Notes under the pieces: model-generated
What the model saw: only the letters and a program-made list of their open reading frames with translations
Database searches by the model: none
What the model was told of the DNA's origin: nothing
Translations under genes and position numbers: made by a program
Shown here: positions 815-7,381 of the stretch, piece by piece
How the letters are laid out: every line of letters begins with the position of its first letter
Numbering within the stretch: position 1 is the first letter of the stretch
DNA from: Acidobacteriota bacterium
GTDB taxonomy: Bacteria > Acidobacteriota > UBA6911
Reading direction: 5' to 3'
Length of the DNA stretch: 64,000 nucleotides
NCBI GenBank assembly: GCA_963664705.1
Contig: OY761556.1
Span: forward strand, 2,944,001 to 3,008,000

Positions 815-2446
815 ATGGAAAATCCAAAGAACATCGGGAAATACGAAATTGAAGAATTCCTGGGCGGTGGCATGTCGCACGTATACAAGGCTCGCGACAC
901 GTTGATGGGAAGAACTGTTGCCATAAAGGTACTGACGCAAACCGGCGTCATGGAACCGGAAACAAAAGCTCGATTTCTGCGCGAGGCGCAGATGGCCGGC
1001 AGCCTGTCCCACGAAAATATCATGAGCGTGTACGATTTCGGGGAGGATCAAGGCCAGCCCTTCATGGTTATGGAATTCCTGCGCGGAGAGGATCTGCGCA
1101 GCGCGATGAAAAACGGCAACACCGGCGACACGAACCGCCGGCTTGAAATTGCCCTGCAGGTTGCCAAGGCCCTGGAGTATATTCACCAGCAGAAGATCAT
1201 CCACCGCGACATCAAGCCGGAAAACATTCACATCGGGACCTCCGGGAAAGTAAAGCTCATGGACTTTGGCGTAGCCAAAACGGATGAGCTGAACCTCACG
1301 CGCCCGGGATTCACCATGGGAACGCCGTACTACATGGCACCGGAACAGGTGCTTGGAAAAGACGTGACTTCACTCGCGGACATCTATTCGTTCGGGATGC
1401 TTCTTTTTGAACTGCTTACCGGAAGCAAAGCCATCACGGGCGATACAGTGGAGCAGCTCTTCTATAAAATCCTGAATGAACCGGCAGACCTGACAGCCCT
1501 GCAAACGGCCGGAGTTCCGGAATCGATCAATGCGATCATCGCCCGATGTGTAGCCAAGAATCCCGCCGAGCGGCCGAAAAGCATGAGCGAAGTGCAGGCC
1601 TCGATCGAGAAGGCGCTCCGGCCGCAGCCGCAATCCGCGCCCCCGGTTGCCCAGGTTACGCCGGGCAGGAAGTGGATAATCCCCGCCGCCCTCATCGGAG
1701 TAGTGATTCTGGCGGTCATCCTTTATGCACTGATCCCGTCCAGGAATGGCAAGGATGTCGCGCAAAACACGGAAAAGACCTTGCAGAATAAGCCGCAGCC
1801 ACCCGCGACGCTGTCGACCGCCACGAGCGAAATGGTTCTGATTCCGGCCGGAGCCTCCAGGGCTTTCTATATAGATCGAACGGAGGTTTCCAATGAAGCC
1901 TATGGACGCTTCTGTACGGAAAAGGGCCGTCCGTTACCCTCGGGATTTCCCCAATCGCAACCGGAGCTTCCGGTCGTGAATATTACAATTGTGGATGCCC
2001 AGGAATTTGCCAAGTGGGCGCAGAAGCGCCTGCCGAGCAAAATCGAATGGGAAGCGGCCGCGCGCGGCAGCGATCAGAGAACCTACCCATGGGGAAATAC
2101 GCACGATCCTTCGCTTGCGAATGTGTCCGACAACACCGGGCTCAGCACCCATACTCTCATGGCAGCCGACGCATTCAAACAGGGAGCCAGCCCGTACGGC
2201 GTGCAGCAGATGGCGGGAAATGCGTGGGAGTTTGTCGATGAGTTGATTGCACCCAGTCCCGGAGCGTTGCAGGCCTTCGCCAAATTGATGACGCCGCCGC
2301 CGGCCGCGGATGAACCATGGTATACGATACGCGGGGGAGCCTTTGACACGCCCCTGGTTAAAAATGCCGCCTTCGAATGGAGTGCCGTGCCCGCGAGATT
2401 CAGAGCACCGGATATCGGATTCCGCTGTGCCAAAGATATTCCCTAA
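815..2446 (+). CDS. Membrane Ser/Thr protein kinase with C-terminal FGE-sulfatase (SUMF1-like) domain
   Basis: Kinase motifs LGGGMSHV, VAIK, HRDIKPEN, DFG and GTPYYMAPE; a TM helix; then FYIDRTEVSN, RLPSKIEWEAAARG, YPWG, MAGNAWEF and IGFRC. Likely start MENPKNIG at 815. Confidence 0.92.
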   Translation: MENPKNIGKYEIEEFLGGGMSHVYKARDTLMGRTVAIKVLTQTGVMEPETKARFLREAQMAGSLSHENIMSVYDFGEDQGQPFMVMEFLRGEDLRSAMKNGNTGDTNRRLEIALQVAKALEYIHQQKIIHRDIKPENIHIGTSGKVKLMDFGVAKTDELNLTRPGFTMGTPYYMAPEQVLGKDVTSLADIYSFGMLLFELLTGSKAITGDTVEQLFYKILNEPADLTALQTAGVPESINAIIARCVAKNPAERPKSMSEVQASIEKALRPQPQSAPPVAQVTPGRKWIIPAALIGVVILAVILYALIPSRNGKDVAQNTEKTLQNKPQPPATLSTATSEMVLIPAGASRAFYIDRTEVSNEAYGRFCTEKGRPLPSGFPQSQPELPVVNITIVDAQEFAKWAQKRLPSKIEWEAAARGSDQRTYPWGNTHDPSLANVSDNTGLSTHTLMAADAFKQGASPYGVQQMAGNAWEFVDELIAPSPGALQAFAKLMTPPPAADEPWYTIRGGAFDTPLVKNAAFEWSAVPARFRAPDIGFRCAKDIP

Positions 2447-2979: not shown

Positions 2980-5049
2980 TTATTTCCTGAGGGCGGCATC
3001 GATGCTGGCAATGTTCTTTCTCGCGTACTCCGCTTCCGCCATATCACTGTTCAGCTTCAGCATTGTCGCGAAATGCTGTCGTGCGGCGGGAAGGGTCTCA
3101 ATCTGGCCCGTTGCCTGCGCCTTTCGGGCATACACAAGTCCGAGAGCGTAATGAACGTACGGGTCTTCGGGATCATAGGACAGCGCACGCTGGCAACTAA
3201 CGATCGCAGCATCGAAGTTGGAAAGCTTGCGTTGGCTGTCGCAAACCCCGAAATGCGCCAGGCTGCGCAGGTCTTTCCAGATGTCCGGTTGAGCGGCACG
3301 CTTCTTCTTGCCAAAACCCGCGAGGAAACCGAGGACATAGTAATTCATCTTCCCCGCAAGCTTGCTGTTGTAATCGCTCAGCCGCAGATACTCATTGTAC
3401 TCGACGATGCTTTTATCATAGGCGCCTGTCAGTCTCAGGCTTTCAGCCAGCCAGAAATGCGGCTCCGGATTCGAAGGATTCAGCTTTATCGCCGTTCCGG
3501 CCGCTTCTATGGATGGGGCATACTGATCCTTGATGCGGAACGCCTGCGCCAGCAGATACTGGGCCATGGAATCCCGGGAGTCTCTCTGGACGACAACGGT
3601 CAACTGCCGTATCGCTTCATCGGTGTTGCCGATATCCAGCAGCATCCCTGCAAAACTGGCGCGCGCCTCCAGGTAATCCGGGTCGATGCTGATCGCTTTC
3701 CGAAAGGCCTGCTCCGCCTTCTGTTCTTCAAATAGAGCATTATAGGTACGACCGAGATAGAGCGCCGCCTGGCTGTAGGCAGGATCGGCTGCCAGCGCCT
3801 TTTCAAAACTCTCCGCGGCCTTTCGGTAGTTGTCCTGATACCCCTTCGTATAAAATTCCATCCCTTTATCGAAGGAATCGACCGCGGATTTGTTGCGCCG
3901 GCGAAGAATCAGAATCTTGATGCTGACCGTCTTTTCCTGCCCGGGGTACACCATTTCATCGCGCGGGCCATCGGGCTCATACCCCATCTTGACCCCTTGA
4001 ATGGTGTGGCTTCCCGGCGTGAGCCCCGGAAGCCGCAGAGGCTGCACCTTGTTGACGATGCCGACCGACTTGCCGTCCAGGAAAACCTCGACGGAATCGG
4101 CATTCGACTCGATGATCAGGGCGCCGAATTTGGGCGGGGGAGCATCGGCCACGGACGCCCTGGTCGGAACATAGGCGAGCAACATGCCCGGATCAAAACT
4201 GCTGCGGTCGGATGTCGGGTTCTGCTTGCTGTCGGTTGCTTCCCGAACATTGCTCCGTACATATTCGCCGAGCTCATCGGCGGTGACGAGACCGTCCCTG
4301 TTGTGATCCGCCTCGCCTTCAAGCCCCCTCACGACATAATAGGTAAAGATGCCGTGACCTCCGCCCCAGTCCGGACTCTCAAACGATCTCTCGCGGTCGC
4401 GGCTCGCTGTCAGGGAAAATACCGATCGCGACAAATCGATCAACGACCGGTTGATTGTCTGGACATCCGCATCAGGCGCAACCGCGCCGCTGTGGCAGGA
4501 ATCGGTCAACAGCACCTTCCACTTTGCTTTGACCTTCCCGAAGACCGATCCGAGCGTTGCCATCGGATATGCGGTTTGCGCAATCCGATTGAGCTCAATG
4601 TCGTAAGGAGCCAGGTATGCCTGCCCCTGCGCCACAAACCCATGGCCGGCGAAATAGACCAGCACACGATCCTCTTCTTTCGCCACGGAAGGCAGCCACT
4701 CTTCCATCTCCTTGCGTATCGAGGCCAGCGTGGCTTTGGCTCCGACCAGGGTATGAACATTCTCCGCCCGGAAATTGCCCCCTTCGGGGCTGATCAGAAC
4801 TGAATACACGGCCTCGGCATCTCTTTCGGAATATTGGAGCTGCTGCTGCGCCGAGAGATTTTTATATTTGGCAATTCCAATCACCAGGGCATAGCTGCGC
4901 GGGATCTGCGGCACGGCGCCGCCCTTATTTTCAACGGCGGACGGCACATCCTTTTCTATTTTGAGATCACGCTCGGATTTCGGTTTCTGTTGAGCGAATG
5001 CCAGAACTGCCATGGAGAAGGCGATAACCAGTCCGATTTTTCGCATCAT
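2980..5049 (-). CDS. Exported caspase-family (peptidase C14, metacaspase-like) protein with PEGA-like domain and TPR repeats
   Basis: Signal peptide; YALVIGIAKY; catalytic His in FAGHG and Cys in DSCHSG; GHGIFT; a PEGA-like segment (VEVFLDGKSVG...GSHTIQGVKMGY); about 8 TPR-like repeats. Confidence 0.92.
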   Translation of the reverse strand: MMRKIGLVIAFSMAVLAFAQQKPKSERDLKIEKDVPSAVENKGGAVPQIPRSYALVIGIAKYKNLSAQQQLQYSERDAEAVYSVLISPEGGNFRAENVHTLVGAKATLASIRKEMEEWLPSVAKEEDRVLVYFAGHGFVAQGQAYLAPYDIELNRIAQTAYPMATLGSVFGKVKAKWKVLLTDSCHSGAVAPDADVQTINRSLIDLSRSVFSLTASRDRERSFESPDWGGGHGIFTYYVVRGLEGEADHNRDGLVTADELGEYVRSNVREATDSKQNPTSDRSSFDPGMLLAYVPTRASVADAPPPKFGALIIESNADSVEVFLDGKSVGIVNKVQPLRLPGLTPGSHTIQGVKMGYEPDGPRDEMVYPGQEKTVSIKILILRRRNKSAVDSFDKGMEFYTKGYQDNYRKAAESFEKALAADPAYSQAALYLGRTYNALFEEQKAEQAFRKAISIDPDYLEARASFAGMLLDIGNTDEAIRQLTVVVQRDSRDSMAQYLLAQAFRIKDQYAPSIEAAGTAIKLNPSNPEPHFWLAESLRLTGAYDKSIVEYNEYLRLSDYNSKLAGKMNYYVLGFLAGFGKKKRAAQPDIWKDLRSLAHFGVCDSQRKLSNFDAAIVSCQRALSYDPEDPYVHYALGLVYARKAQATGQIETLPAARQHFATMLKLNSDMAEAEYARKNIASIDAALRK

Positions 5050-5053
5050 AGGA

Positions 5054-5737
5054 TCACTTGTGAGCCAGCCGGAACTGGTAGATCACAGGCCCCGTCAGGG
5101 GGACCGGAGAAGAAACCAGGGAGCTGTCTTCCTTACGCATGATGATAAGTTCACGGGATTTTGCCCGCGGTATGCTCTGCAGGTTTTCCGGCAATTCGTC
5201 GGAATCAGGAATGCTTCGCACGCCGGCACTCGAATCAATGCAATCCCCACGGGCGCGCATCATTGTGTCGTCGCAGCGCGGCAGCAGCGTTTTGGGCGGC
5301 ATTTTGGGTTTTGGAAGCGGAGCGATGCTCCCATCGCCAATCCCTAACGGAACAGGACTGACCATCCAGTACACGACATCATGTCCCGGAGGCCCGTCGA
5401 CACGAAATAGAGCGCGGGTTGCAGGAACCTGATAATCCCGGCCGGCAACGATGCCATTTTCCTTGCCGGTCTCCTCCCTTGGGAAGAGCATGGTGTAGCT
5501 GCCGCTGGTTCCGTAATCCATCACATAAAGGTATCCGTTGAAATTCGCCCGGAATCGAAATCGGACATGATCGCCTTTAGAAAAGATGTATCCGGGATCG
5601 GCTGACTTCCAGGAATTTTCTTCCTGCCGTTCCAGGGTGATCTCCATTCTCTGCGACTGTCCGGGCTTTGGCGCATCAGTCTGGGCACACAGTCCGAGTG
5701 AAAACAAAAGTGGAAGAACCGTCAGTATCGGTTTCAT
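5054..5737 (-). CDS. Exported DUF4384-domain protein
   Basis: Signal peptide; FSKGDHVRFRFRANFNGYLYVMDYGTSG..MLFP pattern typical of DUF4384. Confidence 0.82.
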   Translation of the reverse strand: MKPILTVLPLLFSLGLCAQTDAPKPGQSQRMEITLERQEENSWKSADPGYIFSKGDHVRFRFRANFNGYLYVMDYGTSGSYTMLFPREETGKENGIVAGRDYQVPATRALFRVDGPPGHDVVYWMVSPVPLGIGDGSIAPLPKPKMPPKTLLPRCDDTMMRARGDCIDSSAGVRSIPDSDELPENLQSIPRAKSRELIIMRKEDSSLVSSPVPLTGPVIYQFRLAHK

Positions 5738-5739
5738 GT

Positions 5740-6642
5740 CTATTGATGTGTGAGAGTCAGATCGGCAACCACGCGAGCATTTGCCGACCGCGAGGGATTG
5801 ACAATATATACCGCCTTCTCTTTCTCAGGAGCAGAAGGAGTGGGCGGCGCCGTTTCATCAACTTTCTCAATCACCAGATCCCTAGCCGAAATGTTGCGCA
5901 GTCGTTCGATCAGGTTGTCATGAATGTTTGCCTGGGCCAGTAAGACTTTGCCGCTGTCCGGACGGGCATTTTCCTTGGGCTTGGCTTTCTGCCCATCCGA
6001 CAAGGAATAGATCAGTTCTTCCAGATCGCTTACCGGCTGTCGTGAAAAGACAATGAAAAGCTTCTCTTTTCCAGGCTGTTCGTCAAAGGTAAACACATAC
6101 CCGGATGGGATGTCATATTGGGTCCCCTTCAACACATGGTTGTCGCCGCCGGCAATTTCTGAAGATGGGAACAGCGGCTTCCAGTTTCCGCTGGAACCAC
6201 GGCTGATAATGTACAGGTAGCCGGCCGTATTCACATCCACGCGAACGCGTATCCTGTCTCCTGAATGAAAAACCGTGTCGGTATCCACCTCCACCGAGGC
6301 TGAACCGGTCTTTTTGAGGAGGCTGTATCGAATCCCGAGCGGACCGGATTCACCCGGATTGAAGGCGACCTCCATCATGTCTCCGGATGATTTGGCCGGA
6401 ATGCCTGGCCTGGATTCCGGGGCTTTGGCCTCGGGGGCCTTGGCTTTTGCCACTTCGACCGGCTGCTTTTCTTTGGTTTTTGCTGACTGGGATGTCGTCT
6501 TCTTTGCGGGAGGCTCAGCGGACGGAGCGGAATAAAAAATCTCGCGGGCGCTGAGGTTCTTTGATGTCTGGCCAAAAGCCTGTACCGCACTGAGAACTAA
6601 AAGTAAAATCCAAAACGGGGATTGGATTTTGCATGATCGCAT
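5740..6642 (-). CDS. Exported DUF4384-domain protein
   Basis: AGGAGG RBS before ATG at 6642; signal peptide; FHSGDRIRVRVDVNTAGYLYIISRGSSG..LFP...FDEQPGKEKLFIVFS. Confidence 0.82.
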   Translation of the reverse strand: MRSCKIQSPFWILLLVLSAVQAFGQTSKNLSAREIFYSAPSAEPPAKKTTSQSAKTKEKQPVEVAKAKAPEAKAPESRPGIPAKSSGDMMEVAFNPGESGPLGIRYSLLKKTGSASVEVDTDTVFHSGDRIRVRVDVNTAGYLYIISRGSSGNWKPLFPSSEIAGGDNHVLKGTQYDIPSGYVFTFDEQPGKEKLFIVFSRQPVSDLEELIYSLSDGQKAKPKENARPDSGKVLLAQANIHDNLIERLRNISARDLVIEKVDETAPPTPSAPEKEKAVYIVNPSRSANARVVADLTLTHQ

Positions 6643-6790: not shown

Positions 6791-7381
6791 ATGATGCATA
6801 GGTCTTTGCCGGTACGAATTGCTGTTTCAGTTGTTTTGATTCTCATGCTCGCGGTTCCCGATGCGCTGCGCTCTGCTTTCGCCGAGCCGCCGGCCGCCCC
6901 GGGACTCAATCTGGTGATTATTGAAGGAGAGGGCGCCATCAACAACGTAAAGCAGCGAACCGCGCGTGAACCGGTGGTGCAGGTGGAGGATGAAAATCAT
7001 AAGCCTGTTGCCGGCGCTGCTGTGCTGTTTACACTTCCGGATGGCGGGCCAAGCGGAGTTTTCGGAAATGGAGCAAAGACGCTTAAGGTCATGAGCGACG
7101 CTCAAGGCAGGGCTGTGGCCAAAGGACTGCGCCTTAATGACGTTTCCGGAAAATTCCAGATCAAAGTGGAAGCGTCCTACCAGGGAGCCAATACTTCCAC
7201 AACAATCAGCCAGACCAATGCAGTTCTATCAACCGTCGCCCACGCCGGGACGACATCGGCGCAGATTGCATCCATCGCACTGGCAGTCGGTGCTGCTGTG
7301 GCTGCCGTTGTGGTCGTTGCGACCCAGAAGAAAACGACAGCATCTCAAAACAGCCTGGGCTCACCGACCGCAGCGAAATAA
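6791..7381 (+). CDS. Exported Ig-like (Big_1-like) protein with C-terminal hydrophobic helix
   Basis: AGGAG RBS; signal peptide; VVQVEDENHKPVAGAAVLFTLP...SDAQGRAV; hydrophobic C-terminal anchor. Confidence 0.65.
   Translation: MMHRSLPVRIAVSVVLILMLAVPDALRSAFAEPPAAPGLNLVIIEGEGAINNVKQRTAREPVVQVEDENHKPVAGAAVLFTLPDGGPSGVFGNGAKTLKVMSDAQGRAVAKGLRLNDVSGKFQIKVEASYQGANTSTTISQTNAVLSTVAHAGTTSAQIASIALAVGAAVAAVVVVATQKKTTASQNSLGSPTAAK

Follow-up and report, generated by a model that had tools for sequence, protein, structure and literature searches.

An Arg-Asp-Leu motif shared by a caspase tail and an adjacent DUF4384 protein in soil Acidobacteria likely marks a predicted site of self-blocking or self-cleavage and of partner cleavage

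Background

Characterized C14 enzymes other than caspases cleave after Arg or Lys, and a 2017 review named 1 characterized orthocaspase (PMC5756287). We analyzed a window of 64,000 nucleotides from an Acidobacteriota bacterium (lineage UBA6911; assembly GCA_963664705.1, contig OY761556.1, positions 2,944,001 to 3,008,000), meaning by the window this whole stretch of DNA, in which a minus-strand trio of closely packed genes encodes a large DUF4384 protein, a small DUF4384 protein, and a caspase-PEGA-TPR protease. A short motif, R-[DE]-L-x-hydrophobic, recurs in the N-terminal tail of the protease and in both DUF4384 proteins. On balance, we favor the reading that the tail motif is a tethered autoinhibitory or self-cleavage site, copied in the large DUF4384 protein as a dedicated substrate or competitor. 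By analogy, the arrangement would work as if the autoinhibitory motif of a metacaspase had been shifted to the N-terminus, with a copy placed in a protein of the same operon. The literature searched, which excluded supplements and subscription papers, gave no account of a motif common to these proteins.

Plant metacaspases offer the template for this reading. In AtMC9, the Arg of the self motif ITSR183↓ALP (the arrow marks the scissile bond) occupies S1 and its Leu a hydrophobic S2' pocket, with no clear S1' or S3' pocket, and the substrate signature consists of a basic P1, an acidic P1', and a hydrophobic P2' residue (PMC10235996). AtMC4 is self-inhibited through Lys225 (10.1101/2020.03.09.983940), and maize MC9 imposes few constraints beyond a P1 Arg (PMC13450427). 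The window protease resembles AtMC9/AtMCA-IIf and AtMC4, which carry an autoinhibitory motif (AIM), in its C14 fold, its acidic S1 pocket, a basic residue followed by x-Leu, and a self motif similar to that of the substrate, and the R↓D-L of the window proteins matches the AtMC9 signature R/K↓[DE]-hydrophobic (PMC10235996). Unlike the type II metacaspase AIM, the window motif lies on an N-terminal tail and not on the p20-p10 linker, and unlike the plant enzymes, the window protease is bacterial, likely exported, and equipped with PEGA and TPR parts; the protein that it presumably cuts is a product of the same operon, and binding of the motif in the active site is putative.

Two further C14 enzymes share single features with the window protease. 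The N-terminal region of the type I metacaspase TbMCA2, with Tyr31 as gatekeeper, can likewise block an Arg/Lys-specific C14 active site, but it does so with Tyr, and the available text describes neither a substrate-like Arg motif nor a partner copy (PMC4357240). MALT1 has the same succession of a caspase domain and an immunoglobulin (Ig)-like domain and an Asp/Asp/Glu S1 pocket, whereas the window protease is bacterial, lacks the death domain and the N-terminal Ig domains, ends in a TPR tail, and is only 13–17% identical.

Bacterial proteases with substrates encoded nearby have also been described. LcCaspase of Lysobacter capsici cuts the product of a neighboring gene, LcHydrolase, at putative conserved R↓G sites, 1 of which ends a helix (10.1101/2025.11.14.688446); the window operon likewise has a neighbor-encoded protein with an Arg motif ending a helix, where cleavage is predicted. 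LcHydrolase is a cytoplasmic death effector, whereas here the site would be R↓D-L, the partner is likely exported and no enzyme effector, and the motif also stands on the protease. In Type III-E systems, some Csx30 substrates of the caspase-like TPR protease Csx29 have a DUF4384 C-terminal domain (10.1101/2022.08.17.504292), but Csx29 is a CHAT protease that CRISPR controls and whose output runs through a sigma factor, and no such genes were identified in the window operon. Orthocaspases and kinases have been listed with DUF4384 as an accessory domain (PMC7475262, PMC6426788, PMC8283722, 10.1101/2025.01.12.632604), with no shared motif or role given in the available text of these 4 sources, nor any motif in that of the Csx30 source.

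Results

Conservation of the motif in the protease tail and the large DUF4384 protein

The strict form RDLxIEK occurred twice among the 7,033 six-frame open reading frames (ORFs) of at least 150 amino acids in the source genome (2.46 million residues), once in the caspase tail and once in the large DUF4384 protein. These 2 copies are identical at 6 of 7 residues, as a sequence-only reading of the window had reported, and that reading had also placed all 4 motif copies correctly (Table 1). Different synonymous codons are used at 5 of the 6 shared residues, so RDLxIEK was not copied recently at the DNA level. The loose form R[DE]Lx-hydrophobic is frequent, with 509 matches in the same genome and a 5–13% chance per protein of comparable size, so the 2 weaker copies, in the small DUF4384 protein and near the N-terminus of the large one, have to be judged by their conservation alone. 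The 2 DUF4384 proteins matched PF14326 with 50.3 and 56.7 bits (cut-off 27). Because they are paralogous, with C-terminal motifs at matching positions of their hhalign alignment (probability 99.8), these 2 copies have 1 origin, not 2, and we rejected a count of 3 independent copies.

The sequence-only reading had proposed that alignments of orthologs would bear on the motif, and they bore it out for the tail and the large partner. For comparison, we retrieved 80 loci surrounding the top caspase matches, all but one labeled with Acidobacteriota taxa. The tail motif was present in 118 of the 120 best protein matches, the 2 exceptions being without an N-terminus, and R-D-L was found in 79 of 80 caspase tails, with a truncated protein as the sole exception. 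Across the 114 rows of the tail alignment, Arg and Asp were conserved in 114 and Leu in 113, amid variable flanking columns in which the commonest residue reached approximately 20–60%. Tail residues 1–24 had predicted local distance difference test (pLDDT) values below 50 in the AlphaFold2 monomer, with 35–38 for the motif itself; judged by this model, the copy is an invariant motif within a disordered tail. The spacing from Arg to the caspase domain was 15–33 residues in 65 loci and never below 15, which fits a tether needing a minimum reach.

In the large DUF4384 protein, RDL was present in 68 of 69 ORFs, the exception appearing frameshifted, and in 61 of 61 rows of an alignment (A1) that had been chosen on the N-terminal motif, so that the unselected counts are those over the 69 ORFs. 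The RDL of the C-terminal motif was found in 120 of 120 matches to the large-DUF4384 profile, a count biased upward because the search profile contains the motif. Its Arg ends a helix (residues 218–231) in the structural model, and a strand (233–236) follows (pLDDT 57–75); the last strand of the protein is modeled as part of an Ig-like beta-sandwich.

Catalytic residues and predicted specificity of the protease

The protease consists of a likely signal peptide (residues 1–18), the disordered tail, a Peptidase_C14 domain (PF00656; residues 51–282, E 5e-17, 62.7 bits against a cut-off of 21.4), a PEGA-like Ig domain with a weak match (E 0.007), and TPR repeats. Foldseek of the protease model gave MALT1 as the nearest caspase-fold match (E 3.5e-10). 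A PDB search with the caspase domain as a single sequence returned no matches, and the full-length profile returned TPR proteins only among the 60 matches listed. With its intact His/Cys dyad (Table 1), the protease is by its sequence a member of C14B (metacaspase-like/orthocaspase) and not a type II metacaspase; in the protease family of the window, the segment after Cys166 is short and carries no autoinhibitory-type motif.

The P1-Arg determinants are Asp365, Asp462, and Glu500 in MALT1 and Asp95 and Asp211 in TbMCA2 (PMC4357240). Weak hidden Markov model alignments to AtMC4, Yca1, and MALT1 (E 0.002–0.07) placed Asp58, Asp164, and Glu205 of the window protease at S1 positions, and these aligned acids support a predicted specificity for Arg. 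The sequence-only reading had taken all copies for one Arg-specific signal; the S1 residues lend weight to the Arg specificity, but the copies proved unequal, as set out next.

A conserved basic-hydrophobic insert, KLAGKMNYYVLGFLAGFGKKKRAAQ, breaks up the repeats of the TPR region (positions ~3295–3365; mature residues 543–566, pLDDT below 50).

The 2 weaker copies

The motif of the small DUF4384 protein had Arg in 60 of 73 orthologs and Leu in 70. All 13 losses of Arg fell in loci that also hold the large DUF4384 protein, and where the large protein was absent, the small one kept Arg (7/7); a small protein without Arg is likely a non-cleaved partner in loci with the large one. Between positions 5057 and 5683, this protein also carries an invariant PRC...RGxCxD segment whose 2 Cys likely close a disulfide loop; the insertion falls at the place of a disordered stretch and a helix in the large paralog.

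The N-terminal copy in the large protein, of the AREIFY type, was found in 65 of 69 close orthologs, the remaining 4 being truncated or frameshifted. It is helical in the model (helix 8–13), and its position in 19 distant relatives held Lys in 11, Arg in 3, and a non-basic residue in 5. We therefore retained it only in part as the same motif; it is possibly a second, looser site.

Co-change of the tail and partner motifs

In several loci from separate lineages, the caspase tail and the large DUF4384 protein deviate from the common motif in the same way. A matched RDM-x-LVFE insertion (RDMGLVFE in the caspase, RDMELVFE in the partner) was identified in L165, a matched FT in L129 (RDLKFT/RDLVFT), RDLKF in both proteins in L049 and L070, and PRDLVLA in both in L157, and the clade of the window has Ile/Val in place of an aromatic residue in both proteins. 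At the +4 position, counted over 102 loci with duplicates dropped and L165 excluded, an aromatic residue in the caspase was accompanied by one in the partner in 50 of 50 cases and Ile/Val by Ile/Val in 19 of 19. These sequence comparisons are no more than suggestive of co-evolution of the tail and partner motifs.

Distant relatives and other DUF4384 proteins

A distant clade with 36–42% identity retained both the caspase and the DUF4384 motif. Further, a distant family of the same phylum carried R-x-[ILV]-x-[ILV] in 21 of 21 caspase tails, 14–19 residues before the domain, with a variable residue after Arg (K, G, S, N, A, R, E), and R-x-[IV]-x-[LIF] in 27 of 27 query-like DUF4384 matches counted by eye, which is the pattern of a putative fixed P1 and a hydrophobic P2' residue. 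Lys replaced Arg at the C-terminal site of 1 distant DUF4384 protein (L146) and at the N-terminal sites of L122 and L146. The family-wide constant is thus Arg, sometimes Lys, with alternating hydrophobic residues, and the Asp is lineage-specific. The residue after Arg was the same in caspase and DUF4384 protein in 1 genus of the distant family (RKI in both) and not in others.

DUF4384 genes of the distant family were seen by eye to be paired, one with the motif and the adjacent one without. In a count over 66 DUF4384 ORFs from 40 other stretches, with a pattern set post hoc and related genomes included, 30 of 54 non-kinase proteins and none of the 12 fused to a kinase had basic-x-hydrophobic-x-hydrophobic close to the C-terminus, against a background of 10.5%. 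An Atlas search returned DUF4384 clusters from Acidobacteriota only.

Genomes G031 and G110 (L114, L116, and L117) had 8 and 11 clustered DUF4384 matches together with several caspase genes, and many cluster members carried R-G, R-S, or R-D motifs. Repeated pairs of a motif-less kinase-DUF4384 fusion and a soluble DUF4384 protein, often ending in R-[GAS]-L-G-L, were found in L130–L145 and are candidate receptor-ligand pairs. Distant-family caspases of L237–L257 had a further Arg motif (SRG) within the loop that follows the catalytic Cys, where none was found in the family of the window.

Operon conservation and neighboring genes

A small-type DUF4384 match was present in 76 and a large-type match in 69 of the 80 loci, almost always immediately upstream of the caspase gene and in the same order, and several loci missing a DUF4384 gene were contig ends; the 3 genes are a conserved Acidobacteria operon. 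DUF4384 matches in the source genome were confined to the operon pair, and C14 matches to the operon caspase and 1 more protein. All 3 products have hydrophobic, signal-like N-termini as assessed by eye, and export is predicted.

Upstream of the operon, a divergent gene (6791–7381, plus strand), adjoining it in 36 of 80 loci, encodes a protein that is likely exported and anchored in the membrane; it has a weak carboxypeptidase-regulatory-like domain and a conserved QRxAREPxVQVEDEN segment. Its REPxVQV part was not counted as a motif copy, since Pro occupies the Leu position. On the other side, a Ser/Thr kinase gene (815–2446, plus strand) is convergent on the caspase gene; its product combines a transmembrane segment with an FGE-sulfatase domain, and R-D-L was not seen in its aligned juxtamembrane part. 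A kinase-FGE relative was found at 7 of 80 loci. Between the kinase and caspase genes (~2500–2930), inverted-repeat elements were seen by eye, with 2 copies of a REP-like unit in opposite orientation. The 3 neighbors tested gave no PADLOC or NCBIfam match, and no defense assignment was made; a known death effector beside the protease was not found, the match to NF047832 reaching 99.4 bits against a cut-off of 140.

Table 1. Genes of the operon, motif copies, and active-site residues of the protease, with window positions
Feature	Positions	Strand	Remarks
Large DUF4384 gene	5740..6642	-	300 aa; AGGAGG precedes ATG
Small DUF4384 gene	5054..5737	-	227 aa
Caspase-PEGA-TPR protease gene	2980..5046	-	688 aa; another in-frame ATG at 5049
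Protease tail motif RDLKIEK	4951..4971	-	Mature residues 8-14; Arg codon 4969-4971
Large DUF4384 C-terminal motif RDLVIEK	5863..5883	-	Arg230 and Asp231
Small DUF4384 motif RELIIMR	5135..5155	-	RELII part at 5141-5155
Large DUF4384 N-terminal motif REIFY	6532..6546	-	A-[RK]-x-L-F-Y type; related, looser
Asp58 (mature numbering), predicted first acidic S1 residue	4819..4821	-	Aligned to metacaspase CVND/CIND Asp; 60/60 sequences
Catalytic His117 (AGHG)	4642..4644	-	60/60
Asp164 (predicted S1) and catalytic Cys166 (DSCHSG)	4495..4503	-	Each 60/60; aligned to AtMC4/Yca1 DSCHSG
Glu205 (predicted S1, loop L5)	4378..4380	-	Aligned to MALT1 'AFE' Glu, E 0.07; 59/60

Discussion

We propose that the protease of the operon likely recognizes R-[DE]-L-x-hydrophobic, with a predicted cut after Arg. 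We chose an autoinhibitory or self-cleavage role for the tail because R↓D-L fits the AtMC9-type template and because the tether has at least 15 residues in all 65 loci. As an autoinhibitory motif, the tethered tail copy would lie in the acidic S1 pocket of its own enzyme, and self-cleavage would remove it, as happens to the linker motif in type II metacaspases of plants. The copy in the large DUF4384 protein, at a helix-strand junction, would serve in the periplasm as a dedicated substrate or a bait that competes. Because the beta-sandwich includes the last strand, cutting at this junction would open a nick in a loop and release no fragment. In this proposal, Arg specificity, active-site binding, cleavage, the order of events, and export are all inferred.

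Several observations weigh against the proposal. The AlphaFold2 monomer leaves the tail undocked and Arg unplaced relative to the S1 pocket, conservation extends to +5/+6 (E-K), beyond the reach of the AtMC9 pockets on record, and, in contrast to typical caspase sites, residues on the non-prime side vary. Since it forms a strand in its own model, the large-DUF4384 motif may be structural, and the tail motif is also present in orthologs (L233–L235) whose fetched stretch has no DUF4384 match. Within single genomes of the distant family, the caspase and the DUF4384 protein often differ in the residue that follows Arg, and 14 of 22 genomes with a DUF4384 match had no caspase match at the strict cut-off. 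The co-change likewise has its exceptions, with a mismatch at +4 in 22 of the 102 loci (Leu or Met in the caspase against Phe or Tyr in the DUF4384 protein). In an underpowered formal test on tree-independent pairs, +4 changed the same way in 2.7 pairs and the opposite way in 0 (median p 0.25), and no position was significant, with p about 1 at the others; the 2 trees had 67 and 103 rows, the latter chosen for RD[LIM] in both proteins. Finally, the position equivalent to Cys92 of TbMCA2 (position 55) is not Cys among 60 sequences (Ser 29, Pro 19, Ala 12), and loss of this residue can lower activity, as PMC5756287 warned.

The undocked tail, the conservation to +5/+6, and the partner strand keep 2 alternatives in play. 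The motif could be an uncut docking beta-strand, the tail mimicking the DUF4384 strand, competing for a groove of DUF4384 (or of PEGA/TPR), and tethering the trio, which we hold tentatively, as possible rather than probable. Such docking would account for conservation on alternating hydrophobic positions after Arg and for the strand in the large-DUF4384 model, for a small DUF4384 protein that keeps L-x-F where Arg is lost (13/73), and for a monomer model without the tail in the active site. It sits poorly with an Arg that is the sole invariant residue across distant families while its neighbor varies and that Lys can replace in some distant copies, with a partner enzyme whose Arg-type S1 pocket appears intact, and with a tail motif kept where the fetched stretch is without DUF4384.

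Alternatively, cleavage could expose an N-terminal D-L-x-I strand that inserts into another DUF4384 protein or a DUF4384-kinase receptor, for signaling or strand exchange. All conserved residues follow Arg, and the post hoc C-terminal pattern in non-kinase but not kinase-fused DUF4384 proteins and the distant-family pairs with and without the motif would agree with this; LcHydrolase requires exact junctions after cleavage (10.1101/2025.11.14.688446). We consider such insertion unlikely, since the cut would leave D-L-K-I-E-K on the protease and the acceptor is hypothetical. Fold searches with DUF4384 returned generic Ig-like matches only (Z 5.4–7.7), with no pilin-like match standing out (best Z 7.7), and a kinase adjoins the operon in few loci.

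Arg sites near mature N-termini are common as maturation sites, and together with the monomer model that shows no self-docking this would suit a site at which a different envelope protease processes the proteins or an export factor sorts them, with the caspase as a mere co-client. We judge this very improbable, given that the strict motif is restricted to the operon in its own genome and that a housekeeping enzyme does not explain motif changes in step within a locus. Chance resemblance or local DNA duplication, for which the frequency of the loose pattern might speak, is hardly credible, being contradicted for the caspase tail and the large-DUF4384 C-terminal copy by invariance amid variable flanks, the 2 strict occurrences genome-wide, and the differing synonymous codons.

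Beyond the proposed self-blocking and partner cleavage, a rather doubtful extension would have 1 Arg-x-hydrophobic-x-hydrophobic code on tether and partner, re-tuned per lineage, run a periplasmic switch. DUF4384 would then be the dedicated substrate and signal domain of exported caspases; the partner would displace the tail and be nicked, and its new N-terminal strand would bind a motif-less DUF4384 receptor.

Most bacterial caspase homologs have no known substrate or activation route. The operon offers exact predicted scissile bonds, Arg8-Asp9 in the protease and Arg230-Asp231 in the large DUF4384 protein, and with them a testable first substrate, and natural variants swap motif residues in both protease and partner. 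The proposal is also a first functional hypothesis for DUF4384. If it is true, a metacaspase-type autoinhibitory motif would be placed on an N-terminal tether and matched by a co-encoded envelope partner, in a use of caspases other than death.

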